From: a virus
Length of the DNA stretch: 64,000 nt
IMG/VR virus record: IMGVR_UViG_3300032053_000047
Coordinates: 8,990-72,989 of that record
Direction: 5' to 3' (one strand)
Shown: piece by piece, positions 3,358-50,388 of the stretch
Layout: each line of letters starts with the position of its first letter
Position numbering within the stretch: position 1 is the stretch's first letter
Position numbers and translations under genes: made by a program
The notes under the pieces: model-generated
Databases searched by the model: none
Told to the model about the DNA's origin: nothing
The model's input: the letters and a program-made list of their open reading frames with translations, nothing else

Positions 3358-3378
3358 GCAGTAAACAGTTGAAGTGCG

Positions 3379-3402
3379 GCGGGGTCTAATAATAGGCCCC
3401 GC
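3379..3402 (+). terminator. Hairpin after major capsid gene
   Basis: GCGGGGTCT-AATAAT-AGGCCCCGC; weak U tail. Confidence 0.5.
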
Positions 3403-3430
3403 TAATTAACCACAAATAGAGAGGATCTAT

Positions 3431-5023: not shown

Positions 5024-5464
5024 ATGGCGAGCACATGGATTTCTGAAGTCGCTGCCGATACCTATTTCGCAACGCGGCTCGGCGCATCAACCTACTGGAG
5101 CAGCGGGGCAGAAAAAGAGGCCGCGCTAACTACGGCACAATGGCAGATCGAGAATTCCGATCTGTTTGGCGGTTATCCCGATGTATCCGTAACGGGCGAA
5201 GTTGCAACGCAGGCCATGGCGGATGCCGTGTGCGAGCAGGCGCTGTTCCTATTGCAAGACGCCGATGTCGATACCCGCGTGAACCTACAGGCGCAAGGAG
5301 TTCAGCAGGCAGGCATGGTGCAGGAGACGTACAAATTGGGCAACGGCAGGATCGCCATATCGGGCCGTGCTTATGCGTGTATGCAGAAAGCGGGCTACCT
5401 CAAATACGGTAAGGGGTTCCGGTATGACAGTCTGGCCAGCCAGAACGCCGATGATCTCGACTAA
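5024..5464 (+). CDS. Head-tail adaptor (DnaT-like/gp6-type)
   Basis: WISEVAADTYFATR...KEAALTTA...AVCEQALFLL pattern of phage head-tail connectors. Confidence 0.75.
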   Translation: MASTWISEVAADTYFATRLGASTYWSSGAEKEAALTTAQWQIENSDLFGGYPDVSVTGEVATQAMADAVCEQALFLLQDADVDTRVNLQAQGVQQAGMVQETYKLGNGRIAISGRAYACMQKAGYLKYGKGFRYDSLASQNADDLD

Positions 5465-6810
5465 TGAAGGCAACCCACGTAATGCTTTTACAGCGGCGTA
5501 ACGCGCAACGAAATCAAGTAGTTGATAATCAGGAAATATACAAGTCACAAATGTCGCCGCCGATCCCGCCCTGCCCCCTTTCCACACAACCGATTTGCGG
5601 ACAACCTCTATACACGGTCCTCGACGACGGGGCTTGGGCGGGACAACGTTGTTTTCTAATTGGCGGCGGACCCTCTTTGATCGGATTCGATTTCTCGCGT
5701 TTGGATGGCGAACTTGTTATCGGGATCAACCGGGCGTATGAAAAAATTGATCCGGCGATCATCTACACGATGGATACCCGTTTTATCGCATGGGCATCTA
5801 GCGGCACTATCAGTATTGAGGCACGCAAAAAACTCTATACGTCATTGGCTACCCGCGTTTTTTCTCGGGCATCTACAAAAAATTATCCTAAAGGTTTTTA
5901 CATTATCGAACGTTCAGGAAGCGACTTGTTTCAAGGCAGTTTACGCAAAGGGTGGTGTGGGCACAACAATTCCGGGTCCGGCGCATTATCTTTGGCGATA
6001 GCCCTCGGCTGTTCTGAAATTTACTTGCTTGGGTTTGACATGCACGGCGATCCGGTTACGGACAAACAAACCTGGTGGCATTCAGGGTATCCGGCGGACA
6101 GCATACAGAAAGCCAGCGTGGTCTACAAGGCAATGCGGAGCGCATTCGGACATCATGCGGATGCCATTAAAGAACGCGCGCGCGTTATTAACTGCAATCC
6201 CGATAGCGCACTTCGCTGTTTTGAGTTTGGAGATCTCCCTGAACCATGTCCGCCGCGCCCTACGGTTGTGGGTTTCTACACGGCTGGAACTGGGTATGAA
6301 GCCGAAGCGCGAGAGATGATCGCCAGCGCTCACCGTATGGGACTCAGGACTGATGTGCGGGCAATTGAGAATCAGGGTTGGCAACGGAACACCTCGTATA
6401 AGCCGCGGTTGTTGCAGGAAATGGTAGAGAAATATTGGGAATCCGCTATCGTCTATACCGACGCCGACTCCCGGTTTATGCGTTACCCGGCGTTATTCAA
6501 TGCCGATGGCGGTCTAGCCGATTTTGCCTATCACCGCCATAAGAGCAAAGAGGTTCTATCCGGCACGTTATTTATCCGCTGTAACGAATCCACCGCGGCA
6601 CTTATGCGGCTCTGGGCTAAAACGTGTGAGCAAAATCCGCAGACATGGGATCAACGAAACCTGGAAATCGCGCTGGGCAAATGGGACGGCAACTGTTCCA
6701 TATTGCCAGCCGAATATTGTTGCATCTTCGATTACAAACCCGCTCCCGATAAGCCCGTGGTAATTCACTATCAGGCGAGTCGGCGGCTGAAAAAGGAAGT
6801 AGGTGCCTAA
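5464..6810 (+). CDS. Two-domain glycosyltransferase (Maf/DUF115-like N-terminal domain + GT-A nucleotide-diphospho-sugar transferase)
   Basis: FLIGGGPSL, IGINRAY, NNSGSGALSLAIALGCSEIYLLGFDM; C-terminal YKP, YTDAD (DxD), WDQ, HYQASR. Confidence 0.8.
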   Translation: MKATHVMLLQRRNAQRNQVVDNQEIYKSQMSPPIPPCPLSTQPICGQPLYTVLDDGAWAGQRCFLIGGGPSLIGFDFSRLDGELVIGINRAYEKIDPAIIYTMDTRFIAWASSGTISIEARKKLYTSLATRVFSRASTKNYPKGFYIIERSGSDLFQGSLRKGWCGHNNSGSGALSLAIALGCSEIYLLGFDMHGDPVTDKQTWWHSGYPADSIQKASVVYKAMRSAFGHHADAIKERARVINCNPDSALRCFEFGDLPEPCPPRPTVVGFYTAGTGYEAEAREMIASAHRMGLRTDVRAIENQGWQRNTSYKPRLLQEMVEKYWESAIVYTDADSRFMRYPALFNADGGLADFAYHRHKSKEVLSGTLFIRCNESTAALMRLWAKTCEQNPQTWDQRNLEIALGKWDGNCSILPAEYCCIFDYKPAPDKPVVIHYQASRRLKKEVGA

Positions 6811-8837: not shown

Positions 8838-9793
8838 AGATCCTACTCCTAAATTTGGAATTCGATTGCGGCGGCGCATCTTGGAATCTGATGGAGGCGA
8901 TCCGGACGTGCCACCCTGGGCACGAAGTCAGGCACGCCATATTCAAGACCACCTACGCCGCTCCTAATAGTGACATTCTATTCAAGCGAGTAGAAGATCT
9001 GTTGCCGTTCTGCGAATGGGCCGATGTGATTCACTTCAATAACTGGCTTTGGACACACAAACCCGGCAACAATCGGCTCGGGTTCTATCCCGTTAATGAG
9101 TATGGCGGACCCTCGCCGTTTGAATCCGTATTGCAGGACAAAAGCAAAACTATCGTTTATCATTTCCACGGCGGCAATCACCAACTCAACCCGAAATATT
9201 GGCTTGACGAATGCACTCGCATTGGCGTTCGTATCCTGAAATGCGACCCGTTGTGTCCGATACCCGGTGCAACATGGTTGCCAAACGTACTCGACCTGAA
9301 ACCCGCGCAGGTCTGCCGACATCAGCCGTTCGGCGTGGCTATCATGGGCAATGTTAGCGATCAACGCCGAAACAATTATGCTATCCAATCCGTGTTGAAA
9401 TACCTCGATATCCCGCACAAGTTTTTTGGTGAAGTTCCCCGTCAAATTGCTCTCGTGGAACGCCGCAAATACCCGGTGTGTATTGATAATCTCACCCAGG
9501 GGTTCGCAGGCATGTGGACGTGGGAAGCCCTCGCCATGGGACAGGTGCCGATTGCGCGGCTGGACCCGGCGGTAACGGTGCAATATCAGGGTGCGCCTAT
9601 TGTCCAATGTCCCAACCTCGATTGGGTATCATTTCGACTTCGGCGATTTCAGGATGACCCGGTATTCTGGGATCAATGGTCGCGGGCCGGGGTTGCGTGG
9701 ACGGAGGAACACAATTCATCTGCCGCGGTAGCGGGCCGGTATATCGAGTTTTACCAAAAGGCAAAAGATGATCCAGACAATCTCAATCATTGA
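8834..9793 (+). CDS. GT-B (GT4-like) glycosyltransferase
   Basis: MKILLL start, ADVIHF, HFHG, WEALAMGQVPI; ATGA coupling. Confidence 0.75.
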   Translation: MKILLLNLEFDCGGASWNLMEAIRTCHPGHEVRHAIFKTTYAAPNSDILFKRVEDLLPFCEWADVIHFNNWLWTHKPGNNRLGFYPVNEYGGPSPFESVLQDKSKTIVYHFHGGNHQLNPKYWLDECTRIGVRILKCDPLCPIPGATWLPNVLDLKPAQVCRHQPFGVAIMGNVSDQRRNNYAIQSVLKYLDIPHKFFGEVPRQIALVERRKYPVCIDNLTQGFAGMWTWEALAMGQVPIARLDPAVTVQYQGAPIVQCPNLDWVSFRLRRFQDDPVFWDQWSRAGVAWTEEHNSSAAVAGRYIEFYQKAKDDPDNLNH

Positions 9794-10310
9794 CATCTGC
9801 AACCTAATACTTAAAAAGTGGGGTGCTGAATCCGCCCTTGAACTCGGTTGCGGTATCTGCGGGATGATTTCCCGCCTGCATCTAAACGAACGCCGCGTCG
9901 GTATTGATAACTGGCAACCGTCTCTAGATGAAGCACGCGAGAAATTCCCTTTTGTAAAAACCATTTGCGCAGACATCCGCAGGGTAGGCGAGTTGTTCGT
10001 CCCCAGTAGTATAGATATCGTCTGCGGGTTCGATATCTTGGAACACCTCCTATATGCAGATGCTATGCAGGTTATGGATGCTGCCGAACGCATAGCCCGG
10101 AAAGGAGTCATTTGGTGGGGACCGCTCGAAGAAGACGAACCGCGCGATATTGAAACCCATGGCAACCCCGGCATGAAACACATACGGATTATCAACCTGA
10201 ATGAATTTGAGACACGGGATTATGAATTGATCACGTTTCCCCATTATTGGACAGAACTACCCATGTATGGGGCTACCGGATTTTTGGCATTCAAAGGAAG
10301 TGCGCAATGA
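9768..10310 (+). CDS. Class I SAM methyltransferase
   Basis: LELGCGICG, VGID, DIVCGFDILEHL. Confidence 0.9.
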   Translation: MIQTISIIDICNLILKKWGAESALELGCGICGMISRLHLNERRVGIDNWQPSLDEAREKFPFVKTICADIRRVGELFVPSSIDIVCGFDILEHLLYADAMQVMDAAERIARKGVIWWGPLEEDEPRDIETHGNPGMKHIRIINLNEFETRDYELITFPHYWTELPMYGATGFLAFKGSAQ

Positions 10311-11281
10311 CCCAATCAGGTCCGGCCTTAGTAACACAATATTTATCAGCCAGCACGTATCCGGCAAAACTGATTGCCGATCCGGGTACGATTGCGATGA
10401 TCAAACGCGGGTTTATCCCGCCCATTCACGTACAACTATCACCAACAAACCGTTGTACACGCGCCTGTAGTTTTTGCAACTGCCGGGGCCGCGACAAAGA
10501 CGCCGAACTATCATTAGCCCAGATCATGCAATGCCTCCGGGACTTTTTCTCGTTAGGTGCGCGGGCATTGACCATTACGGGCGGCGGCGAACCGCTTTGT
10601 TATCCCGATCTCGATGCCGTGATCGAGTTTGCTGCTAACCTCGGGTATGACGTGGGGCTGATCACAAACGGCGATTTACTGAGTGTGAAACCGTCAGATG
10701 CCGCGCTTCACCGCCTAACATGGTGCCGGATCAGTGCAAGCGATGAAACGAATCAGATAGCCGCACTGGAAGAGCGTGTTGCCGCCCATTTTTCCGTTGA
10801 CTGGGCGCTCAGTTATGTTGTCACGGCAAAATTCGATTCAAGTAACCTAATGGAACATATCGCATGGGCTGAACGCGCCAATATGACGCATATCCGCATC
10901 CTAGAAGATCACACCAATCTCGGCAAGACGCTGGGCATTGAACAGGTTGAAGCGCTTGTCGGGGTTGACAATCCGCGCATCATCTACCAGCACCGAAAAG
11001 AGTTCTTCCGCGGTCCCGCTAATTGCCGGATCGGATTGCTCAAGCCCTATGTCGGCTCTGAAGGAAACATATACCCCTGTTGCGGAATCCAATTCGCCCT
11101 CGGTGATAAACGATATGCTCTACCGAAAGAATTGTCTCTATGCGCTATTGAAGACATTAAAGAGTTCTGGCATAAGCCGACGCTATTCAACGGTTCCCAA
11201 TGCGTCCAGTGCTACTATCAAATGTACAATGACGTACTGCGGATTCTCACTTCCAATATTGCGCATGGGGGGTTTCTATAA
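10307..11281 (+). CDS. Radical SAM protein with SPASM/twitch-like C terminus
   Basis: CTRACSFC (CxxxCxxC), TGGGEP, ITNG, GNIYPCC, C-terminal CxxC. Confidence 0.92.
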   Translation: MTQSGPALVTQYLSASTYPAKLIADPGTIAMIKRGFIPPIHVQLSPTNRCTRACSFCNCRGRDKDAELSLAQIMQCLRDFFSLGARALTITGGGEPLCYPDLDAVIEFAANLGYDVGLITNGDLLSVKPSDAALHRLTWCRISASDETNQIAALEERVAAHFSVDWALSYVVTAKFDSSNLMEHIAWAERANMTHIRILEDHTNLGKTLGIEQVEALVGVDNPRIIYQHRKEFFRGPANCRIGLLKPYVGSEGNIYPCCGIQFALGDKRYALPKELSLCAIEDIKEFWHKPTLFNGSQCVQCYYQMYNDVLRILTSNIAHGGFL

Positions 11282-36947: not shown

Positions 36948-37078
36948 AAAACATGAATAATGCTGCTATACCGAAGACGGCTAACATAATTGATGACCAC
37001 ATGTTTTCAAACGCATTACCCATTCCAAAGAATAGAGGACCAAGGGCACCAATGAATATTCCGAGTAAATCCCACATG

Positions 37079-37450
37079 TCAATTCTCCTCTTTTATCGCT
37101 GCTAAAATCCGTTCGATGTTTCGTTTGTTCTTTCCATATGCGACAATTTGGCCTAATGTCTTAGAATTGGCCTCGATACGCGTAGTTTTTTCGTCTACGG
37201 GGGTGAGAATCAGCGTGACTTCATCACCCCATGTCCAGAGACTTACCGGCGTACCTGCTGTGATTATGCCCGCCTGTTTATCACTGAACTTGACGGTCCA
37301 ACCAAGATCGGCGACTGCACGGACCGCCGCAGAGAAAGCCGTATCTATATTTCCGCCGTAAACGACAGGGTCAATGCCGCCGCGCCCCGTACTCGTGGAA
37401 GCACACCCGAAGAGGAACAAAACTAAAACAATACACAATCCGCGTTTCAT
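37079..37450 (-). CDS. Lipoprotein
   Basis: MKRGLCIVLVLFLFGC lipobox. Confidence 0.8.
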   Translation of the reverse strand: MKRGLCIVLVLFLFGCASTSTGRGGIDPVVYGGNIDTAFSAAVRAVADLGWTVKFSDKQAGIITAGTPVSLWTWGDEVTLILTPVDEKTTRIEANSKTLGQIVAYGKNKRNIERILAAIKEEN

Positions 37451-37453
37451 CGC

Positions 37454-37966
37454 CTACCGACCTCCGTAGTTGCTCGCGCGCGCTTCCCGTTTATGCGTCA
37501 CCGCCTCAATGGCTTTTTGTCGCCATAATGCTGTATCTCCGGCATTTCCGGGCGCAGTCTGAGTGATCGGCACAAGATCTGTATGAATGCCGTCTGGCAG
37601 ATTGGCAGATGCACCACTTGCCGCGTCAATCCCTATGCCTATAGGCGCAAGCAGGCCGATTAGTAATAGGTTGCCAAAACCCGATCCCGCCGCGTTCTTT
37701 CCTACTGTTCGGTTAATAGGAGAGGTGACGGTATGATATCCGTCAAGAGTGTAGGTAGCAAAATAGTTCTTCTTTTTGGAGAGTTTTATTGTCCCCGGTG
37801 TGGTAGTCGTAAAGTAAAGACCCGGCTTTTTCGATTCCACGGCCACCTTTGCGCCGCGAGGTTCAGAGGTAAAAGTAACGTTCTTGCTCGTATTGCCTAG
37901 AATTGTAGCGCAACTCGCCAAAGAAACGAGCATAATTATAATCACTGCAACCCTAACCCTTCTCAT
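37454..37966 (-). CDS. PEGA-domain lipoprotein
   Basis: Lipobox LASC; FTSEPRGAKV...TTPGTIKL. Confidence 0.8.
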   Translation of the reverse strand: MRRVRVAVIIIMLVSLASCATILGNTSKNVTFTSEPRGAKVAVESKKPGLYFTTTTPGTIKLSKKKNYFATYTLDGYHTVTSPINRTVGKNAAGSGFGNLLLIGLLAPIGIGIDAASGASANLPDGIHTDLVPITQTAPGNAGDTALWRQKAIEAVTHKREARASNYGGR

Positions 37967-38170
37967 AATGTCCCCTTTCTCGGTTTTTCCACTAGCTTTG
38001 TCCAGTGTTTCCTTCAATAATACCGTATTACTTATAACTCCTATTGACAAAGAAACCTATTGGTGATAAAAGGATTCCGCTGCGGTGCAGGCCACTCCTG
38101 AGTCTGCCGGGGTGCCGCCGATCCTGCCTAAATGATTTGGGGAGGTACGGGCATGAAGTCACAATACGAG

Positions 38171-38581
38171 TCATTTTTTGCCTGTCTTAAACGGCATCTC
38201 GGCGCGATCCATCGCGGTCGCATAGCAGGTTACAAACGTGCCAAGCTTTTCGATCTTTCGGTCGAGGCTGAACTCGCGGTCGGGCAAATTAAGAGCAGCG
38301 GCAAGCGCATTCGCGTCAAGCCTGGCAACCCTAAGCGGGTCCGAAGTTGAATCGCTAATTTCAGCGGGCGGCATTATCTTCATAATAAATCCATGTTCAC
38401 GCAACCAAGGCTCTAGGCTGGAACGCTTCTCTGGGCCAAGAACGCCACGGCTCACAAAATCATACAGCGGCTGCGGAGTTTTCAATCCAATTGCTTTGGC
38501 GATATCTGTTACGTGAATTCGCTTAGACGCGGCGGAAAGCGCCGCTCGTAGCCGTTCTTTTTCCGGTTCCATGTTGAACAT
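38171..38581 (-). CDS. CI-like repressor (HTH)
   Basis: VTDIAKAIGLKTPQPLYDF; divergent from the Cro-like gene. Confidence 0.65.
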   Translation of the reverse strand: MFNMEPEKERLRAALSAASKRIHVTDIAKAIGLKTPQPLYDFVSRGVLGPEKRSSLEPWLREHGFIMKIMPPAEISDSTSDPLRVARLDANALAAALNLPDREFSLDRKIEKLGTFVTCYATAMDRAEMPFKTGKK

Positions 38582-38649
38582 TGTAAACGCTGTAAGTCCT
38601 TATCACAAGCCTCTCTAGAGCAATCTAGACACCCCAGTCAAAATTCCTC

Positions 38650-38678
38650 TTGACAAATCTAGGTAAATCGTCTAAGAT
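38650..38678 (+). promoter_or_regulatory. Rightward early promoter with repeated (AA)TCTAG operator-like half-sites
   Basis: TTGACA-N17-TAAGAT; TCTAG repeated four times within 38613-38695. Confidence 0.75.
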
Positions 38679-38704
38679 TCTAAACGGAATCTAGGAGGTA
38701 CACG

Positions 38705-39016
38705 ATGAACAAAGACAATAATGACCGCCCGCCGAGGGCTGAACGGCTTCGTGAATTACGCGGTGAACGAACCCTCCGCGAAGTAGCTAAACAGTTGGGG
38801 CTTTCACCTGCAACCATATCACTTAATGAAAATGGATACCCAATTTCCGCCGAGGTAGCCAACCTCTACAGCCAATTCTATGGCGTCGAAGTATCCGAAT
38901 TTTGGACGCCACCGGAACTTCCAATGGCCGACGCGGCCCAATCCGCGTCCTCTTGCGCTGACAATAGTTTACCACTGGCCGACGAAAATTTCAACCTGGA
39001 AGATGTCCATGCCTAA
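38705..39016 (+). CDS. Cro-like XRE HTH regulator
   Basis: LRELRGERTLREVAKQLGLSPATISLNENG. Confidence 0.9.
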   Translation: MNKDNNDRPPRAERLRELRGERTLREVAKQLGLSPATISLNENGYPISAEVANLYSQFYGVEVSEFWTPPELPMADAAQSASSCADNSLPLADENFNLEDVHA

Positions 39017-39299
39017 AGTCGCAACTGCCGATCTCGCGATGCGCGAGTACTGGACCCCCGCCCAGGCGGCGCGGGTGCTCGGCCACGGGGCGGCATTCTG
39101 GCGGGCCGCGTTTGACCGCGGCGACGTCCAGGGGCAACTCGCGGGGGATCGCCGGTATCTAGTCGCCGGTTCAGCCCGCGTCTACCTGACTGGCCTATGC
39201 CGGGCCACTGCGCCCACAAAACCGCTGCAAACCCGCGGAGAAGCGGCTGTAGCGCGGTTCATGGCCCAACATGGGGCGCGGCCAGTTAGTACGAATTGA
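39009..39299 (+). CDS. Excisionase-like HTH protein
   Basis: YWTPAQAARVLG...DRGDV...RRYLV. Confidence 0.7.
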   Translation: MPKVATADLAMREYWTPAQAARVLGHGAAFWRAAFDRGDVQGQLAGDRRYLVAGSARVYLTGLCRATAPTKPLQTRGEAAVARFMAQHGARPVSTN

Positions 39300-39341
39300 C
39301 GAAAACGGAGGGGATCTGAAATTTGAATCGGCAACGCCGAC

Positions 39342-39415
39342 GGCAGGCTTGGCGCGGCTAGGCACGGCGAGGAATGGCCTGGCTAGGACCGGCTGGGCAC
39401 GGCATGGGATGGTTT
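39342..39415 (+). repeat. GGN-NN pentamer array 1 (candidate guide RNA)
   Basis: GGCA followed by 14 in-phase pentamers, all starting GG (10 of 14 GGC). Confidence 0.9.
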
Positions 39416-39434
39416 ACAAAATGGAGGAAACAAC

Positions 39435-40106
39435 GTGAAGAAGACAGAGGAAGCGGAAGCGGCACCAAAACAAAAGACGGTTTTAATTGAAAAGCCAAAC
39501 ATGGAAATCGGGCTTTTCCGTATCCGTGGAACGGCTCCTTATGTGCAACACCGTTTCGCCACGAAAGCCAAGGAAATGATGAAGGCGAAACAGGAAGCCG
39601 GATCAACGGCAGCAAAAGGCGCAAAGCGAGAAGCTAAAAACTTCATGGCAGAGTATGAGGCGGCGATGTACAAGATCGGCGCAAACGGGAAACCGGTGGA
39701 ACATGGCATTCCCGCGCCTGCATTCCGTAACGCCATGATCTCGGCTTGCCGGGTTGTCGGCTTCCCTATGACGCGCGGCAAGTTGGCCGTGTTTGTGGAG
39801 GCCGATGCGTTCGATGAAAGCGACGGCACGCCCTTGGTGCGCATCATCAAAGGCAAACCCCACTGTACTGAAATGCCAGTGCGCCTCGAAACAGGCGTGA
39901 TCGATATTAGGGTACGCCCGATGTGGGACGCGGGGTGGGAAGCCGAAGTGCGTATCCGATTCGATGCCGACATGTTCACGTTGGAAGACATCGGAAATCT
40001 GTTGTTCCGGGCGGGCGTGCAGGTAGGTATCGGTGAAGGACGGCCCGACAGCAAAAAGTCCTGCGGGATGGGCTGGGGGTTATTCGAGGTTGTCAAAAGC
40101 AAGTAG
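39435..40106 (+). CDS. Stand-alone RAMP/Cas7-like protein
   Basis: FRIRGTAPY strand, GIPAPAFRNAMISA helix, C-terminal G-rich loop GIGEGRP...GMGWGLFEV; SD GGAGG. Confidence 0.75.
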   Translation: MKKTEEAEAAPKQKTVLIEKPNMEIGLFRIRGTAPYVQHRFATKAKEMMKAKQEAGSTAAKGAKREAKNFMAEYEAAMYKIGANGKPVEHGIPAPAFRNAMISACRVVGFPMTRGKLAVFVEADAFDESDGTPLVRIIKGKPHCTEMPVRLETGVIDIRVRPMWDAGWEAEVRIRFDADMFTLEDIGNLLFRAGVQVGIGEGRPDSKKSCGMGWGLFEVVKSK

Positions 40107-40134
40107 CCGCCGCTGTGTGTGATAGTTGAATCAA

Positions 40135-40280
40135 GGCAGGCACGGCGGGGCCGGGCATGGCGGGGCTCAACGGGGTTCGGCTTGGCGCGACTTGGCGAGA
40201 TAGGCTTGGCAGGCGCGGTTCGGCGGGGCGGGGCGGGGCGGGGCGGGGTATGGCACGGTTCGGCAAGGCATGGCAGGCAT
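40135..40280 (+). repeat. GGY-NN pentamer array 2 (two candidate guide units)
   Basis: ~26 pentamers punctuated by 4-nt GGCA units at 40135, 40208 and 40272. Confidence 0.9.
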
Positions 40281-40321
40281 GAAACGGTTGAGTGAGCGAA
40301 ACGACGAAAGGACAGAACGGA

Positions 40322-40774
40322 ATGGACAGTTCAGTGTTGGATGAACTTGAGATGATCCGCGTCAAAAGCGGCGGCGTGCTCAAGCCAGAAGATGTAGTCC
40401 AGCGGGCGAAGGGCAAAAGCAACCCGCTACACAAGTATTTCACATGGGATGATACGGCGGCGGCGCGTGAATACCGCCTGTGGCAGGCCCGTGAGTTAAT
40501 CCGCGTTCATGTGCGTATCGAATCACCGGGGCAAACATTTCCAACCCGCGTGTACGTCAGTCTCGATGCCGACCGGCAAGATGCGGGCGGCGGGTATCGC
40601 CACATCGACGACGTGTTAACCAATACAGACTTGCGCAGCCAACTACTTGACGAGGCCGACCGCGACTTCCGGTATTGGGAAGCCAAGTATTCACACTTGA
40701 AAGAACTCGCTGGCGTTATCGAATCAATGGATATGGTGCGGACAAGACGTAGCAAGAAATCCAAGGCGGCGTAA
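40322..40774 (+). CDS. Conserved phage protein, putative partner of the RAMP-like gene
   Basis: LKPEDVV...PLHKYFTWDDTAAAREYRLWQARELIR. Confidence 0.7.
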   Translation: MDSSVLDELEMIRVKSGGVLKPEDVVQRAKGKSNPLHKYFTWDDTAAAREYRLWQARELIRVHVRIESPGQTFPTRVYVSLDADRQDAGGGYRHIDDVLTNTDLRSQLLDEADRDFRYWEAKYSHLKELAGVIESMDMVRTRRSKKSKAA

Positions 40775-40784
40775 CGGAGGCCAC

Positions 40785-41060
40785 ATGACGGCACGTAAGT
40801 GGAAACAGAAACGGGCATTACAGCGGTTCGCGGAGGCGGTCCAGGCGCTACCCGGATTAGCCTTATGGGGAAAATGCAAAACGCTTGAAGACGTTCTGTA
40901 TCGCGTTGCCCATCCCGCTTGGCTGCCAATTGTAGATGCATGTACGGAAAGAACTGGTTTTGCGCCAATGGATGCGGCCAACATCGAATCCCGCAAGGAT
41001 ATTCGCTGGCTCTACCGGAGGTTACTTACCGCCTGCGGTGTTGATGCACGGCACGTATAG
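40785..41060 (+). CDS. Hypothetical protein
   Basis: SD GGAGG. Confidence 0.6.
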   Translation: MTARKWKQKRALQRFAEAVQALPGLALWGKCKTLEDVLYRVAHPAWLPIVDACTERTGFAPMDAANIESRKDIRWLYRRLLTACGVDARHV

Positions 41061-41240
41061 GAGAGGGGCATGAAAACGGCGATAGTCGCGTGTAAATGCG
41101 CACACGCATGGCAGGACGCCCGTTACGGCGCACACAACCGCGTGCATAACTACTCCCCGAACAAAACTTCGCCGAAATGGGTTTGCACAGTATGTCGCGC
41201 TGAAAAACCAGCGCCTAATATTTAAGAAAGGAGAGGAACT

Positions 41241-41474
41241 ATGAGACTAGAACTCTACGGCAGTGGACCACCGCAAGAGCAGGTGACACGGATTCGGGTG
41301 CGGCAAAATACTGACGCCATCATTATTGACGCAGTTGATGCCAATGGCAACCAAGTAGAGCATGGACTTTTGTTCGAGTTGACACCTAAAGGCCTTGAAT
41401 GTTTTTGCAAGGTTAATAAGACATTGGGATTTCCCCTTGAAGGTGCTGGTTATATCAAGGTCATTAACAAATAG
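41241..41474 (+). CDS. Hypothetical protein
   Basis: SD AGGAG. Confidence 0.6.
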   Translation: MRLELYGSGPPQEQVTRIRVRQNTDAIIIDAVDANGNQVEHGLLFELTPKGLECFCKVNKTLGFPLEGAGYIKVINK

Positions 41475-41531
41475 CCTCCTTCCGCCGCGAGCCGGGGCGC
41501 GGAGTAGTACCCCGGCATAGAATTGAACTGT

Positions 41532-41604
41532 AGTCGTGTAGCGCAATAGGTAGAGCGCGGCGCTGTTAACGCCGAGGTTGTAGGTTCGAGTCCTACCGCG
41601 ACTG
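41532..41604 (+). tRNA. tRNA-Asn(GTT)
   Basis: Full cloverleaf; anticodon arm CGGCG-CTGTTAA-CGCCG; T-arm GTAGG-TTCGAGT-CCTAC; no encoded CCA. Confidence 0.93.
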
Positions 41605-41629
41605 TTAAAAGTTGAAGAACCGATCCCCG

Positions 41630-41727
41630 GTGTGCCGCTGGGCACGTTCATCCTCACCATCCAACCCAGTAGCCGATTCACTCAGATAGGGACGCGCCAC
41701 CCTCGCGTCCCATGCTCAGCGGCACAC
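41630..41727 (+). ncRNA. Structured RNA with a 15-bp closing stem and C-rich interior
   Basis: GTGTGCCGCTGGGCA/TGCTCAGCGGCACAC. Confidence 0.55.
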
Positions 41728-41749
41728 TATAAAAATTGAATAGCTTTTT

Positions 41750-41814
41750 GATGTGCTGGGAAATGGTATAGCGGAGTTTGATAGTAAACAGGTTTCGATT
41801 CCTGCCAGCACATC
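41750..41814 (+). ncRNA. Minimal tRNA-like RNA
   Basis: GATGTGCTGG/CCAGCACATC stem plus a CAGG-TTTCGATT-CCTG T-arm; no anticodon arm. Confidence 0.55.
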
Positions 41815-41987
41815 GAGTTTGCGAGGATGTCACCGGGATTACCCGATGGCATTTCCGCAAAGTGGCGTCACCTGCCGTGCTCCGTTTATGCCTAGGCTGA
41901 GCGAAGTGGTGAGGGAACGCCGCCAGACTAGGCGTGACTTAATGCCACGGTTCAGAGTAACCGAGGCGAAGAAATTGAATAGTTCTT

Positions 41988-42175
41988 GATGTGTTGCGGC
42001 GTGGTGGGACACGCTAAAAGGCGGCAACGACCGGCTAGAACCACAAAGGGGTAGTGACCCTTTCGATTGTCGGTAAGTAGGTGAGCTACTTGTAAGACGA
42101 GCGCGGAAAGTGCCGATATTGACCCGCGCATGTGGAACCGAACAAACGGGCAGGTTCAAATCCTGCCAGCGCATC
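41988..42175 (+). ncRNA. tRNA-like RNA with a ~135-nt insert
   Basis: 9-bp acceptor-like stem, D-arm GCGT/ACGC, T-arm GCAGG-TTCAAAT-CCTGC. Confidence 0.6.
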
Positions 42176-42269
42176 GAGTTTTTGCCCGCCGAATGAGGGC
42201 AGTAGAACGCGAGAGAGGAGGTGGTCCGCGAGACGGCTAAGCGGACCCCATGACACAGTTGAATCTGAT

Positions 42270-42371
42270 CTTTGGCGTGCTACCGGCTACCCTTGCGGAA
42301 CATGCGCGAACCCTGCGGACTGTCTAGACAGCGCCGTAGCAAGTATGCACTAACGGTTTAGCACACCAAAG
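42270..42371 (+). ncRNA. Structured RNA with a 13-bp closing stem
   Basis: CTTTGGCGTGCTA/TAGCACACCAAAG (one mismatch); TTGAA leader and T-run trailer. Confidence 0.45.
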
Positions 42372-42493
42372 TTTTTGCGGCCTGTGATGCCGCGAGCGGC
42401 GACACCAAGGATTCAATCTAGCCGCATAGTGCGTGCGGTGCCGGGTTTGTGGAAACTTTCCCGGCACCGCCCTCCCCAACGAAAGGAGAACTA

Positions 42494-42850
42494 ATGTTCA
42501 GGTTAACGACAAACGACGATACTGTTGTGTTTCAGGTCCCGTGTGGAGAGGGAACTATCCGCTTTGAATGTTATTGCGGAAGCGGAGGCGCTGCATTAGT
42601 CGTTGCTAATGCACTTCGCAATGCCCATCCGGTTCTCTTCGACACCATTGAAACGGAACCCCATGTGTTAAAAAGTGAAGGGGATTGGCTACGTGAACGG
42701 TTACATGAAGTACAGACGAAAATGGATCGTGCCGTGGCGGAGATACGCGATTTGGAGAAGATAGCGAAAAATACATCACCTATCCCTACACTTCAAGAAT
42801 TTGGATTGTTTCGAGACGCCGTGTTCGCGGCGGTGAAAAGAATCGAATAG
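42494..42850 (+). CDS. Hypothetical protein within the RNA cluster
   Basis: SD AAGGAG before ATG 42494. Confidence 0.6.
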   Translation: MFRLTTNDDTVVFQVPCGEGTIRFECYCGSGGAALVVANALRNAHPVLFDTIETEPHVLKSEGDWLRERLHEVQTKMDRAVAEIRDLEKIAKNTSPIPTLQEFGLFRDAVFAAVKRIE

Positions 42851-42869
42851 TTACCAAAGTTGAATTCGT

Positions 42870-42958
42870 GGGCGAGTGGCGAAATTGGCAAACGCAGCGG
42901 ACTTAAAATCCGCTACCCCGGCCAGGGGTTTTTGTAGGTTCGAGTCCTGCCTCGCCCA
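42870..42958 (+). tRNA. tRNA-Leu(TAA)
   Basis: GGGCGAG/CTCGCCC acceptor; GCGGA-CTTAAAA-TCCGC anticodon arm; long variable arm; T-arm. Confidence 0.93.
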
Positions 42959-43373
42959 TCTTATGAATTATTAAACTATTAGGTTTTGGCTAATAGTTGC
43001 CCCGGAGAGTACGGGTATACAGTTGAATATTTTTAGGTGTGCTGTGGCCGAAGGAATGCGTGACGGGCGCGAGAAATCGCGTTGGTAGTGCGACGACGGC
43101 CCCAACGGTCGGCTCAATGATGGAGTAAGGAACAAACCCCTAGAGCAGCAAGCAGGTCAGCCGGGCGCGGGTGATTTTACCCGTAATGACAGTACAGGCC
43201 GAGATAATCGCCTGATAGCCATAGTATACCGATTTCCCAGCAGCGACCTTGCGGGGCCGTGCGGTGACATGGCGTAGCTCTCCCATAGAGAACGTCATGG
43301 CATCGTTACATCAACCCGTTCCGGTTCTATCACGGCTGAGGCCGGACGCCGCTCGGATAACAGTTGACGGGTA

Positions 43374-43487
43374 TCGGCGGATGTCCCAATGGCACTGTCC
43401 AGGAACAGTGGTCGGGCTTCGTGCGGTGCGTCCCTGGCGGGTGCGTGGGGTTCGATTCCCCAACGCACAGAATGCAGCATCCGCCGA
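43374..43487 (+). ncRNA. T-loop-containing structured RNA
   Basis: TCGGCGGATG/CATCCGCCGA 10-bp stem; GGGG-TTCGATT-CCCC hairpin. Confidence 0.5.
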
Positions 43488-43549
43488 GTTTTAGCGATGC
43501 CAAGGAGCGGGTCAACAGCGGCCCGCCCCCGCAAAGAAAGGAAAATGAT

Positions 43550-43780
43550 ATGAAAATCGTAGACAATAGAATCACTAAAACATCAATAATGGTAAATTCA
43601 GAAGATATTAAAGTGGGCATATATTTTATGGGACGCATCAATGAATGTAACGGCCTTTTCTTGCGTATCTATGAGGGAGTCGTATTTATCGATGATCCGG
43701 CCTATACGTGGAATGGATCGTGTGATGTAAGTGAGTACGAGCCTATCGAGGTCGAGATCCACATTGAACGGAACCCGTAA
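43550..43780 (+). CDS. Hypothetical protein
   Basis: SD AAGGA before ATG 43550. Confidence 0.55.
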   Translation: MKIVDNRITKTSIMVNSEDIKVGIYFMGRINECNGLFLRIYEGVVFIDDPAYTWNGSCDVSEYEPIEVEIHIERNP

Positions 43781-43907
43781 TGGCTAACTTCACGCGCCAG
43801 ATCCGCCTGAAGCGTAGGCGTAGTAAACCTAAATTCAGAGGTACGAAAGCGGGCAAAGAATCGGGTTACACACGGGCGGTTAAACGGGCGTTTGGAGGAA
43901 CGCGGTA

Positions 43908-44810
43908 ATGGCAGAGTTCATATCAAAAAGCGAGATTTTAGAAGCTATCAAAAGCGCACGAGCGACAATGCGGTCCGCAGATGAAGCCGCGAACGACATG
44001 GCTATCCTACTGATTGGTAGATTGCATCATGTTGGCTCATATGCCCTGAACGAGCTAAAGCACGAACTTGCGCGGTACAACATGCATACGCAGATGTGGA
44101 TATGACAACCCCACGCCCGATCTTCGCCAAGACGATCAAACCGGATAACCCGCCCCGGTCCACGCGCATCGCAGCCAGCCACTACCATTTTCAGGGCGCA
44201 TACTACGACGCCGATCCTATCCACCAACCTGACAAACCCACCCGCAAACGCCCACCCGATTACGATTATGACCGCCGCTGTACCGGGTGTGGCAAAGTGC
44301 CCGAATGTTGCGAATGTGATGAGGAAGACGCACGAAACTACCGGGAAAGGCACGGATTATGAACCAGACCATCAAAGAGGGTCTCGACCGCTATACACAA
44401 CACCATGTACAAACAGGTTCGTTTCTACGGGCTGTGCTTGAAAACGATCTCAGAGACGCCGTGTGTAGGGCTGATGATGACAATATGCGTGATCTGCGGG
44501 AGATCGTCATGTACGTATACTGGGAACTACCGGGCCAGTGTTGGGGATCGCCTGAACTTGTCCGGGCATGGCTTGCACAGAAACCGGCGACAGCGGAAGC
44601 AACAGTATGATCACCGAGCGCCACTTAGCTCTAACTGAAATAATGATCGCCATTCTTGAGGAAATGACTCGCGTATGCGGTGCGCTATCACCACTGGCGT
44701 GCAAATATTACGCGACCCTGGAGGGCTGTTACACTGGTATTGCGCATAGCCGCGCAGTCGAGGTTCTGCATGTGCGGAACTGTGGCGGTGCTACGGGGTG
44801 TACTGAATGA
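43908..44810 (+). CDS. Four coupled small hypothetical genes (43908-44105, 44102-44362, 44359-44610, 44607-44810)
   Basis: Successive ATGA overlaps. Confidence 0.55.
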
Positions 44811-44879
44811 ACTGAAACGGGTCGCCAGTGCGGGCACCGCGCTAGCGGATACAACGAAGACAACGAAGGGAGACTCGGA

Positions 44880-45830
44880 ATGGGAACTGAATTAGTAGCA
44901 CAAAATGAACGTGATCTCGCAACTCGCTCAGACGTATGCCATATGCTGAGCGTTGCCGAGGTCAAGGCGCAAATGGATGCACTTGAAGAACTCATGCGTA
45001 TCTGCCTGAAAAAGGGCGATCTTGCCAAGGGCAATGAGGGCGATTACTACACGTTGCCCGGTGGCAAAAAGCCCTGTCTAAGTAAGGCGGGCGCACAAAA
45101 AGTAGCGACGATGTTTCGCTTTGCCGCATCCTACCCGATCATCGAAGATCTGAGCACAGCGAATGAATCGCGGTATCGCGTCCTGTGCCGCCTCACCCGG
45201 CCCGATGGTTTATTCGTTGGCGAACAATGGGGCGAGGCCAGTTCGGCGGAATCAAAAAATCGGTGGCGTAAGGCGCTCGATGACGAAGAGTTTGACAGTT
45301 CACATGAAGATGAGAAACGGATCGTAAAACGCAAGAACCAAAACGGCGACGTGTACGAAGTGAAGCAGATCATGGTAAACCGCGCCGATAGTACAACGAA
45401 CGTGTTGCCAAAGGCGCAGAAACGTGCCTACGTTCAAGTTGTGCTTGCCGCCTCGGGCGCGTCCTGCCTGTTTACGAGCGGCCTTGAACCGGATGATCCC
45501 GATTCTGCTGGTGATGGTAACGGCAAAGAGCCGCACAAACCGATTCAGAAACCCCAGGCGAAAAAGGAGTCCGCGCCCGCATCCGACAGTAGTGATATCA
45601 AAACGATCCAAGGCGTGGTTACGCGAGTAGCTGAAAAACCAACAGCCAAGGGTGGTACTCGCTTTGGTGTCTGCATTTTGGATGCATGGTACAACACATT
45701 TGATGACAAAATCGCGGCAGTGTGCGCAAAGGGCGTGATCATCACGCTGGTCTATAAAGTCGGTCAGTACGGCAACGATATTGTATCGGCGGAAATATTC
45801 AACGAACAACCAGGCGAGGCGGCGGAATGA
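44880..45830 (+). CDS. Putative single-strand annealing/recombination protein
   Basis: KPCLSKAGAQK...KAQKRAYV...ASCLFT; C-terminal OB-like domain; adjacent to an exonuclease gene. Confidence 0.6.
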   Translation: MGTELVAQNERDLATRSDVCHMLSVAEVKAQMDALEELMRICLKKGDLAKGNEGDYYTLPGGKKPCLSKAGAQKVATMFRFAASYPIIEDLSTANESRYRVLCRLTRPDGLFVGEQWGEASSAESKNRWRKALDDEEFDSSHEDEKRIVKRKNQNGDVYEVKQIMVNRADSTTNVLPKAQKRAYVQVVLAASGASCLFTSGLEPDDPDSAGDGNGKEPHKPIQKPQAKKESAPASDSSDIKTIQGVVTRVAEKPTAKGGTRFGVCILDAWYNTFDDKIAAVCAKGVIITLVYKVGQYGNDIVSAEIFNEQPGEAAE

Positions 45831-49643: not shown

Positions 49644-49707
49644 CAACAATGCCCGGCGCACGGATGCGCGGGCTTGGGGGCAGGGACGCCGAATGCGGGG
49701 AGTTGAT

Positions 49708-50388
49708 ATGCAGATTAAAAGCCGATGGAATGGCGAAGTACTGTATGAATGTGAGGCCGATAGTCTAATCGAGGTTGTCATTAAGGCCGTAGAAGCGGAG
49801 GCCAACCTCGCGGGGGCCAACCTCGCGAGGGCCGACCTCACGAGGGCCGACCTCACGAGGGCCGACCTCGCGGGGGCCAACCTCACGAGGGCCGACCTCA
49901 CGAGGGCCAACCTCACGGAGGCCGACCTCGCGGGGGCCAACCTCGCGGAGGCCAACCTCACGAGGGCCGACCTCGCGAGGGCCAACCTCGCGGGGGCCGA
50001 CCTCACGAGGGCCTACCTCGCGAGGGCCGACCTCACGAGGGCCAACCTCGCGGGGGCCGACCTCACGGGGGCCGAGTTACCACATTTCCAAATCTGTCCT
50101 GAAGTCGGTAGTTTTATCGGCTTCAAAAAGCTAGACAACGGCATAATTGCCACACTATTGATCCCAGACGGTGCGCGGCGTATGACGCCGCTCGGTTATC
50201 GGAAATGCCGGGCTGAACGTGTGCGTGTATTAAGCGGCAATGGCAAAAGTCCAACCGCCAATACCAAACTGGAATACCGCGAGGGCGACATGGTTGAGGC
50301 GGACTCGTTTGATGATGATATCCGGGTCGAATACAGCCACGGGATCGCGTTTTTTGTGACGCGGAAGGAAGCTGAGGAGTGGATATGA
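49708..50388 (+). CDS. Pentapeptide-repeat protein with a DUF5758-like C terminus
   Basis: ~18 A(D/N)Lxx repeats (15-bp DNA repeats at 49801-50075); RKCRAE, SHGIAFF. Confidence 0.9.

Follow-up and report, generated by a model that had tools for sequence, protein, structure and literature searches.

A short directional leader motif shared by guide-RNA arrays, tRNAs, and structured RNAs in a phage early operon

In VIPR loci, a vipr gene for a RAMP-like protein is accompanied by an accessory gene, vap, and by vrRNAs, which consist of 9 to 16 pentamers with GGY alternating with a variable NN (10.64898/2026.04.26.720920). The vrRNAs of SUSP1 are seen by small-RNA sequencing as RNAs of ~100 nt, staggered vrRNA arrays are described in legend S18, and some VIPR types have hammerhead ribozymes between the vrRNAs (Results and legend S19; 10.64898/2026.04.26.720920). 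These guide RNAs were described only in 2026, and in the text of the preprint the making of their 5' ends is stated only for the ribozyme-interspersed and the staggered arrays. For RNase E, the minimal consensus is RN↓WUU (PMC5222698; the arrow marks the cut), and its cuts in intergenic linkers are stimulated by a neighboring tRNA or simple stem-loop, including one located downstream (PMC9841416). Here, we analyze a stretch of viral DNA of 64,000 nucleotides, referred to below as the window (IMG/VR virus record IMGVR_UViG_3300032053_000047, positions 8,990 to 72,989 of a single contig of 72,989 bp), in which one short leader motif with the core TTGAA precedes two pentamer arrays, two tRNAs, six structured RNAs, and a hairpin behind the capsid gene. 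This sharing leads to the hypothesis that a single signal starts or releases the RNAs of one early operon.

All positions of the core listed in an initial annotation of the window proved exact. TTGAA is found at 39323, 40126, 41523, 41612, 41736, 41975, 42259, 42860, and 43023 and TTGAC at 43364, always on the + strand, with TTGAATC at both array sites. Alignment of these ten sites gives A(9/10)-N-A(10/10)-R(9/10)-T-T-G-A-A(9/10)-T(7/10), with ~15 bits of information and no conservation outside positions -6 to +5. In the segment from 39300 to 43400, A[AGT]TTGAA occurs 10 times on the + strand, compared to 1.23±1.13 in shuffled sequence (maximum, 6), and once on the - strand. A.A.TTGA[AC] is also found 10 times on the + strand but never on the - strand, and 1000 dinucleotide shuffles of the segment give 0.64±0.79 (maximum, 5). 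The ten copies of this stricter pattern comprise nine of the ten listed sites and a coding copy at 40693, inside the open reading frame (ORF) 40292-40774, the site at 41975 being left out by its G at -4. With 10 copies, this is the densest 4.1-kb stretch genome-wide; in 200 shuffled genomes, the maximum for a stretch of this length is 5. Elsewhere on the + strand of the whole genome, A.A.TTGAA is found in only two copies, one of them at 3365, and seven more + strand copies of TTGAA between 39300 and 43400 fall within ORFs and are not leaders. The proposed check of motif frequency against the background came out differently at the two scales: it is positive for the local cluster and negative for the window as a whole, where ADTTGAA has 37 copies on both strands versus 28.9±5.1 expected and 7 of 100 shuffles reach 37.

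Every site is followed after 2 to 12 nt by the start of a unit, which can be a GGCNN array, a tRNA, or an RNA closed by a stem, and no site is found inside a unit. Counted from the end of TTGAA in the order of the sites, the spacers measure 2, 4, 4, 12, 6, 5, 6, 5, 8, and 5 nt, slightly shifted from the ~4 to 15 nt given in the annotation, which had also placed the motif before nearly every unit. That description was too broad: many unit starts are marked, but five structured segments have no leader, namely 41821-41968 (z, -4.0), 42381-42472 (z, -3.3), 42182-42252, 42961-43016, and 43250-43358. By its local excess, its restriction to one strand, and its position before the units, the motif is a real directional signal at RNA-unit starts, and it probably marks the start of each RNA, through either cutting or initiation of transcription. 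It is not described in the literature searched, which included the text of the VIPR preprint. Two near-copies are also present: AATCGAATAGTT (42841-42852) overlaps the stop codon of ORF 42495-42850, 19 nt 5' of the tRNA-Leu leader, and GAAGTTGAATC (38343-38352, + strand) is located in the repressor-side region, antisense to ORF 38171-38581. The hairpin behind the capsid gene spans 3378-3403, with -22.1 kcal/mol computed for 3358-3415. The coordinates of all features are listed in Table 1.

Table 1. Leader sites, RNA units, and neighboring features (positions are those of the window)
Feature	Position	Strand	Remarks	Basis
Leader AAATTTGAAT	39319..39328	+	2 nt 5' of the first GGC of array 1	
Leader ATAGTTGAAT	40122..40131	+	4 nt 5' of array 2	
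Leader AGAATTGAAC	41519..41528	+	4 nt 5' of tRNA-Asn	
Leader AAAGTTGAAG	41608..41617	+	3 nt past the 3' end of tRNA-Asn, 12 nt 5' of U1	
Leader AAAATTGAAT	41732..41741	+	5' of U2	
Leader GAAATTGAAT	41971..41980	+	G at -4; 5' of U3	
Leader ACAGTTGAAT	42255..42264	+	5' of U4	
Leader AAAGTTGAAT	42856..42865	+	5 nt 5' of tRNA-Leu	
Leader ACAGTTGAAT	43019..43028	+	Same letters as the U4 leader; 5' of U6	
Leader variant ACAGTTGACG	43360..43369	+	5' of U7	
Eleventh copy ACAGTTGAAG	3365..3374	+	8 nt past the capsid-gene stop, 5 nt 5' of an 11-bp hairpin	
tRNA-Asn (gtt)	41532..41604	+	CCA not encoded; bounds 41531/2-41604/5	ARAGORN, Rfam
tRNA-Leu (taa)	42870..42958	+	CCA not encoded; bounds 42869/70-42958/60	ARAGORN, Rfam
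U1	41629..41728	+	16-bp closing stem; z, -5.46	Folding versus shuffles
U2	41747..41817	+	13-bp closing stem, T-arm-like element, GAGTTT end; U3 paralogue; z, -4.0	
U3	41985..42178	+	194 nt, U2-like ends, canonical 7-nt T-loop arm, large insert, GAGTTT end; z, -3.93	
U4	42270..42371	+	Closed-stem RNA; z, -0.84; AAGTTT next	
U6	43036..43230	+	~195 nt, 13-bp closing stem; z, -1.34	
U7	43374..43487	+	Closed-stem RNA, extended T-arm-like hairpin, GAGTTT end; z, -2.45	
GGCNN array 1	39330..39415	+	vrRNA-like, ~17 units, GGCAGGC phase slip at 39342; 5' of the Vipr-like gene	
Vipr-like RAMP gene	39435..40106	+	223 aa	AlphaFold2, Foldseek, phmmer
GGCNN array 2	40135..40281	+	~29 units, GGCAGGC slips at 40135, 40208, and 40272	
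vap-like accessory gene	40292..40774	+	phrog_15946	PHROGs, synteny
sigma-70-like promoter	38650..38678	+	Canonical TTGACA-17-TAAGAT, at the head of the rightward early operon that spans all ten leader sites	

The description of what follows the leaders as structured units is well supported for both tRNAs and for U1 to U3 (none of 200 shuffles reaches a comparable fold) and moderately so for U7; it is weaker for U4 and U6 and fails for array 1 (z, -0.24). In the six units U1 to U4, U6, and U7, the 5' and 3' ends pair into a long closing stem, whose 5' arm carries a G-R-Y-GTGC sequence common to five of them. U2, U3, and U7 have a T-arm-like hairpin beside the 3' strand of the closing stem, an arrangement that resembles an acceptor/T-minihelix. 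As the annotation had it, several units end in GAGTTT or AAGTTT: RAGTTT occurs five times on the + strand of 41500-43600, and U2, U3, U4, and U7 each have one of these copies at the 3' end; the 73-kb + strand as a whole contains 36. ARAGORN and the Rfam tRNA model (E up to 10) call only tRNA-Asn and tRNA-Leu and do not call U2, U3, or U7, and no tmRNA is reported by ARAGORN. Rfam searches of 39200-43600 at E up to 10 return the two tRNAs and one chance hit and no ribozyme, tmRNA, or Y RNA-like family; punctuation by self-cleaving ribozymes (hammerhead etc.) was rejected, as no Rfam ribozyme match falls between the units in this search. A 23-nt T-arm segment is common to tRNA-Asn (41578-41600) and tRNA-Leu (42932-42954), with 91% identity, and its 3' half, TCCTGCC, is found again in U2 and U3, which hints at gene conversion or at a tRNA ancestry of the tRNA-like units. 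Whichever way the motif works, it points to six candidate RNA genes outside Rfam, beside a VIPR module.

The pentamer arrays themselves belong to an already known kind: judged by their sequence and gene neighborhood, they encode vrRNA guides and are part of a VIPR system. GGCNN arrays are found on the + strand only. In a Foldseek search of a library that is older than the Vipr entries, the AlphaFold2 model of the Vipr-like protein (pLDDT 87.8) is matched best by chains of the Cas7/Csm3 type from type III and type VII complexes (E 1e-4, prob 1.00, TM 0.37-0.48 only). The ORF has a weak phmmer match to the SUSP1 Vipr 36pp_D (E 0.42) and 7027 database relatives at E<=1e-10. A 2.8-kb JGI contig encodes a Vipr/vap pair with 82 to 83% identity to that of the window. 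In Mycobacterium phage Mattes, an array lies directly 5' of gp52 and gp53, which are 33% and 34% identical to the Vipr-like and vap-like proteins, respectively; this is the same module, annotated there as "hypothetical." The putative vap-like assignment is based on synteny with the Vipr-like gene (here and in Mattes) and on co-occurrence with arrays. Arrays are found in 52 of 88 loci with a vap-like homologue (L001 to L088), always on the strand of the gene. The word GGCAGGC, by which the pentamer register slips one base, is 26 times as frequent in and near arrays as elsewhere (13.65 versus 0.52 per kb), stands at array starts in many phages, and probably marks vrRNA boundaries in staggered arrays. 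Stretches bounded by it hold ~13 to 15 units, inside the published range of 9 to 16, and the phase slips suggest that array 2 is split into two abutting guide-sized vrRNAs, with no leader motif at the internal boundary (40208); such a split agrees with the staggered arrays of the preprint. The annotation had taken the leaders to indicate that the arrays are made as discrete RNAs; by analogy, this fits the published data on homologous systems. Five consecutive GGGGC units in array 2 (40226-40255) could form a G-quadruplex in the RNA or in the non-template DNA strand. Literature searches on GGCNN in phages and on mycobacteriophage pentanucleotide repeats found nothing relevant.

The nearest sequence matches of 39200-43600 come from two sediment metagenomes (DNA runs), one of which is probably the source of the window, and no RNA sequencing run matched this locus in the run search, in which only these two DNA runs did. 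The second run, X2, contains a mosaic relative (contigs compared at 80% likeness) in which whole modules of motif plus RNA have been gained or lost. The segment 41472-41624, with two motif copies and tRNA-Asn, differs there at only 4 of 153 positions. U7 and its motif are missing together, with a joint from 43361 to 43519 and AACAG ending both sides; a gap delimited by two RAGTT words removes the segment 41821-41968, U3, and U4, and most of the VIPR module is absent (joint, 39358 to 40735). The relative also lacks ORF 42495-42850, with AGTTGAATCGCAGT in its place 5' of tRNA-Leu, yet it keeps AGTTGAAT 5' of tRNA-Leu, with a spacer of 9 nt instead of the 5 nt seen here. Since the motif is kept at tRNA-Leu despite the loss of the ORF and a different spacer, it belongs to the downstream unit, and the spacing is flexible.

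Beyond this relative, the motif has a narrow distribution. TTGAA is found within 30 nt 5' of none of 70 arrays in other phage loci, many of which begin a few nucleotides past an upstream stop codon. A scan of IMG/VR for TTGAAT no more than 15 nt away from GGCAGGCNNGGC found at least 118 matches; among the 80 examined, an array came next in 5 and the A.A prefix was present in 0. The cluster is absent from 87 loci with vap-like homologues (34 copies on the + and 17 on the - strand in 420 kb), and blastn of 41480-43520 against 89 loci yields no match at E up to 0.01. Exact-pattern scans of viral contigs for U2/U3, tRNA-Asn, and the leader with tRNA-Leu had 0 matches; in protein scans of viral contigs, the vap-like query retrieved 2 distant loci and the portal query none, and the portal protein is without a close isolate (4 records, 23 to 26% identity). 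Because 0 of 70 other arrays carry TTGAA, the IMG/VR matches are without the A.A prefix, and the SUSP1 leader is unrelated, the motif is a lineage-specific device, used alike for vrRNA arrays, tRNAs, and other RNAs, and not a general part of VIPR systems.

The proteins encoded in the window include portal, major head, tape measure, and J-like tail proteins and a tyrosine integrase (Pfam and PHROGs scans), and by this gene set the virus is a temperate siphophage. The promoter at 38650 is situated in the divergent immunity region, and the first gene of its operon encodes an HTH_3 (cro-like) protein. A scan of 37000-45000 found 6 terminator-like sites, compared to 9.0 expected, none of them at a unit boundary; because unit ends lack such sites, the units are probably co-transcribed and would need to be cut out. 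The annotation had proposed an RNase E-like processing site, and we tentatively rank a signal for cleavage of the RNA, by an activity like that of RNase E/G but with greater specificity, above a minimal promoter. A-N-A-R-UUGAA-U would then punctuate the rightward early transcript of the phage. One long RNA from 38650 would carry the cro-like gene, array 1, vipr, array 2, vap, small ORFs, the two tRNAs, and at least six structured RNAs, with no intrinsic terminator in between. Immediately 5' of each non-coding unit, the motif would be part of a short linker that is rich in A/U and largely unpaired, where an endoribonuclease that prefers single-stranded A/U-rich RNA beside a fold, either RNase E/G-like or more sequence-specific, would cut, most economically between R and UU, and thereby free each RNA module from the upstream sequence. 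RNase P would finish the 5' ends of the tRNAs and tRNA-like units, and the CCA-less 3' ends with their U-rich trailers (RAGUUU) would be left to RNase Z or exonucleases and to CCA addition. Here, we infer the action in RNA, the enzyme, and the position of the cut.

Several observations are consistent with cleavage. At all ten sites, the core agrees with RN↓WUU at four of the five positions (A-R↓U-U; R, W, and U at +2 in 10/10, U at +3 in 0/10), although this consensus is very degenerate. The 9-mers of the motif are predicted to be unpaired more often than other 9-mers of the transcript (P = 0.001 versus any 9-mers): all ten reach at least the 71st percentile, and six of them reach at least the 90th. 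A tRNA or a closing stem, with z down to -5.5, follows 4 to 12 nt 3' of the motif at 8 of 10 sites; the two array sites are without strong structure. Excision of vrRNAs from longer transcripts would also be normal for the VIPR family, because arrays in other phages with this VIPR type often leave no room for a promoter and other types have ribozymes.

A number of points weigh against cleavage. The accessibility excess is not significant when compared with A/U-rich 9-mers (P = 0.067). The ~15 bits of the motif are far above the degenerate RNase E consensus, which leaves the A at -4 and GAA(T) unexplained, and position +3 is G, not U, in 10/10 sites. The conserved A's coincide with positions -11 and -9 of a -10 element, a match for which the promoter reading accounts. 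With RNase P and RNase Z at work, the tRNAs could do without a further endonuclease, and no motif is found within 60 nt 3' of tRNA-Leu. A single motif precedes array 2, which seemingly holds two vrRNAs, and the boundary at 40208 uses GGCAGGC. Behind the capsid gene, a cut at 3365-3373 would part the capsid mRNA from its 3' hairpin. Finally, RNase E/G would have to be present in the host, and the names attached to homologues, which scatter over different phyla and short contigs of metagenome-assembled genomes, indicate no single host.

The alternative that fares best is a promoter, a reading nearly as good as cleavage, although we consider it somewhat doubtful. The motif would be the core of a -35-independent promoter, with n-A-n-A-R-T ending at the first T of TTGAA as the -10 element (A at -11, T at -7) and TGAA(T) as a conserved discriminator; transcription would start ~7 nt past that T, and each module would be a moron-like unit of its own, transcribed by the RNA polymerase of the host, possibly together with an alternative or phage-encoded factor. 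In 11 sites (the ten and 3369), the hexamer has T-7 in 11/11, A-9 in 11/11, and A-11 in 10/11, with 3 to 5 matches to TATAAT, and TAGAAT stands 5' of tRNA-Asn; however, T-12 is present in only 2/11 sites, and TGn precedes the hexamer in 2/11 (40126 and 42259). No unit starts less than 7 nt from that T and 9 of 11 start at 7 to 11 nt, at or just past the expected start, with a purine at +7 in 8 of 11. This geometry would leave the tRNAs leaders of only ~2 nt, and a ~2-nt leader makes a poor RNase P substrate. A promoter would agree with the count of one motif per array rather than one per vrRNA and with the behavior of motif plus unit as a self-contained cassette in relatives (U7 lost with its motif, tRNA-Leu keeping its own), and the site past the capsid gene poses no difficulty for it. 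On the other hand, there is no conserved -35: the columns 5' of -6 carry no information, and TTGACG, 16 nt 5' of the hexamer, is seen at array 1 only. A sigma-70 scan reports 0/10 sites, yet in the same phage it finds the canonical promoter at 38650, and the strongly conserved TGAA(T) is outside the sigma-70 rules. Taking TTGAAT as a -35 box fails as well, since no -10-like hexamer lies 16 to 18 nt 3' at any site in the flanks read. No RNA polymerase, sigma factor, or RNase was recognized among 74 ORFs scanned with Pfam and 36 ORFs scanned with PHROGs. A Bacteroidetes-type promoter, for which we take TAnnTTTG with TTTG at -33 as the consensus, was rejected: the register is only partial, there is no upstream TTTG, and the genes have GGAGG ribosome sites.

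It is unlikely that the motif serves, as RNA or as DNA, to bind a dedicated protein of the phage or the host that marks or protects the 5' side of each unit, for example, a nut-like loading site before a hairpin or a handle for the Vipr RAMP or another RNA-binding protein. A directional element of ~15 bits a few nucleotides before a fold does look like a linear box followed by a hairpin, one of the proteins of the locus has a predicted RAMP fold and may bind RNA, and leaders before vrRNAs exist elsewhere, as in SUSP1 (~36 nt, 4/4 repeat tracts). The core also resembles what we take to be the 8-nt 5' tag of many type I/III CRISPR RNAs. With no conservation further 5', the motif does not qualify as a CRISPR-like repeat. 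It is also found before ordinary tRNAs and before the hairpin of the capsid gene, which have no obvious link to VIPR, and it is not tied to arrays elsewhere (0/70 with TTGAA <=30 nt 5'; 5/80 IMG/VR matches with an array, none A.A-prefixed). No candidate protein has been identified. Even less probable in our view is a dedicated maturation route common to VIPR guides and the private tRNAs and tRNA-like RNAs of the phage, in which the 10-nt leader would be the recognition element, comparable to the handle of a CRISPR repeat and read by a sequence-specific nuclease or the Vipr RAMP and not by bulk RNase E or RNA polymerase. If true, it would be the first defined 5'-end signal of vrRNAs in a ribozyme-free VIPR type and would link guide production to new structured RNAs.

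Equally improbable is that the motif is a scar of recombination and descent, without a function in expression, left by cassettes that spread through duplication and microhomology exchange. In favor of a scar, the paralogues U2 and U3 have 16 nt in common in their leaders, the near-copy AATCGAATAGTT at 42841 is a degenerate extra copy, the joints of the relative fall at short repeated words (RAGTT, 41817/42372; AACAG, 43361/43519; paralogous 5' arms, 41641/41748), and a RecE-like exonuclease is encoded in the phage (PHROGs scan). However, non-paralogous units with wholly different flanks are preceded by the motif as well (two arrays, two tRNAs, U1, U4, U6, and the capsid hairpin), its strict strand bias and fixed 5' position indicate function, and homologous exchange needs more than 10 nt to be efficient. 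The integron core, GTTRRRY, is matched by GTTGAAT in 4/10 sites, but no inverse core or attC-like structure is found, complementary TTCAA/GTCAA lies downstream in 2/10 units only, and the integrase is located elsewhere, with a tRNA-like att site; an integron-like core was rejected on the 4/10 sites and the absent attC features. Other candidates were rejected: a CRISPR repeat or solitary repeat unit (conservation over only 10 to 11 nt, no 28- to 37-nt repeat, and no longer repeat family bar the U2/U3 paralogy), pairing of the leader with a downstream complement (the two TTCAA/GTCAA instances, at 42412 and 43511, are at chance level) or with T-loops (at most 6/7 pairs, and half of the units have no T-loop), and stop codons in three frames (inconsistent across sites).

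Outside the operon, the sequence at 35497-35517, adjoining the integrase gene, is the reverse complement of a tRNA 3' end including CCA, with an acceptor resembling tRNA-Ser. It is likely the attP core and would imply a CCA-encoding host, unlike the CCA-less tRNAs of the phage itself; a prophage-like locus, L087, also borders tRNA-Ser. Genes at 5464-6810, 10247-11281, and 49693-50388 encode glycosyltransferase-like, radical SAM, and pentapeptide-repeat proteins, respectively, the last one with DUF5758.

Among known systems, -10-only promoters, such as the mycobacterial ANNNT type and T4 late TATAAATA, consist of a short single box with no -35. The motif is like them in A-11/T-7 and in having no -35 and unlike them in that T-12 is missing in 9/11 sites, TGAA(T) follows, and the same phage has the canonical promoter at 38650; as a promoter, it would be of an unusual single-box type. 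The tRNA cluster of T4 contains extra stable RNAs, species 1 and 2, that are released by host RNases, and the T5 tRNA region has many internal promoters. As in these clusters, tRNAs are mixed here with structured RNAs of unassigned role; unlike them, the present cluster belongs to a temperate phage and adjoins a VIPR module, and we know of no shared 10-nt leader in the T4 or T5 clusters. Processing of polycistronic tRNAs and small RNAs by RNase E in enterobacteria shares with the phage operon an A/U-rich linker, here predicted to be single-stranded, beside a tRNA or stem-loop, the degenerate R-N↓W-U core (10/10), and one terminator-less transcript. It differs in that the phage motif has ~15 bits and G at +3. 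The phage motif is also placed 5' of the next unit, whereas known cuts fall 1 to 3 nt past the CCA (PMC2190699), which the phage tRNAs do not encode. As a cut site, the phage motif would be more specific than known RNase E sites. The two arrays and the genes they flank fit a VIPR locus, with an array 5' of vipr as in SUSP1 and a viral context. In the text of the preprint, the signals at vrRNA 5' ends are given only as ribozymes and staggered boundaries, with no short leader shared with tRNAs and other RNAs (10.64898/2026.04.26.720920). Thus, the arrays are known from VIPR, and the leader motif appears to be new in the literature searched and lineage-specific. In SUSP1 (L089, NC_028808.2), the repeat tracts lie at 27670-28010 and 29120-29260 on the minus strand, with a canonical promoter (TTGACA-17-TATACT) only before the upstream vrRNA (vrRNA1). 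Although the SUSP1 leader is ~36 nt long, hairpin-capable, and present in two variants with no sequence likeness to the phage motif, it likewise is a conserved sequence located directly 5' of each repeat tract (4/4).

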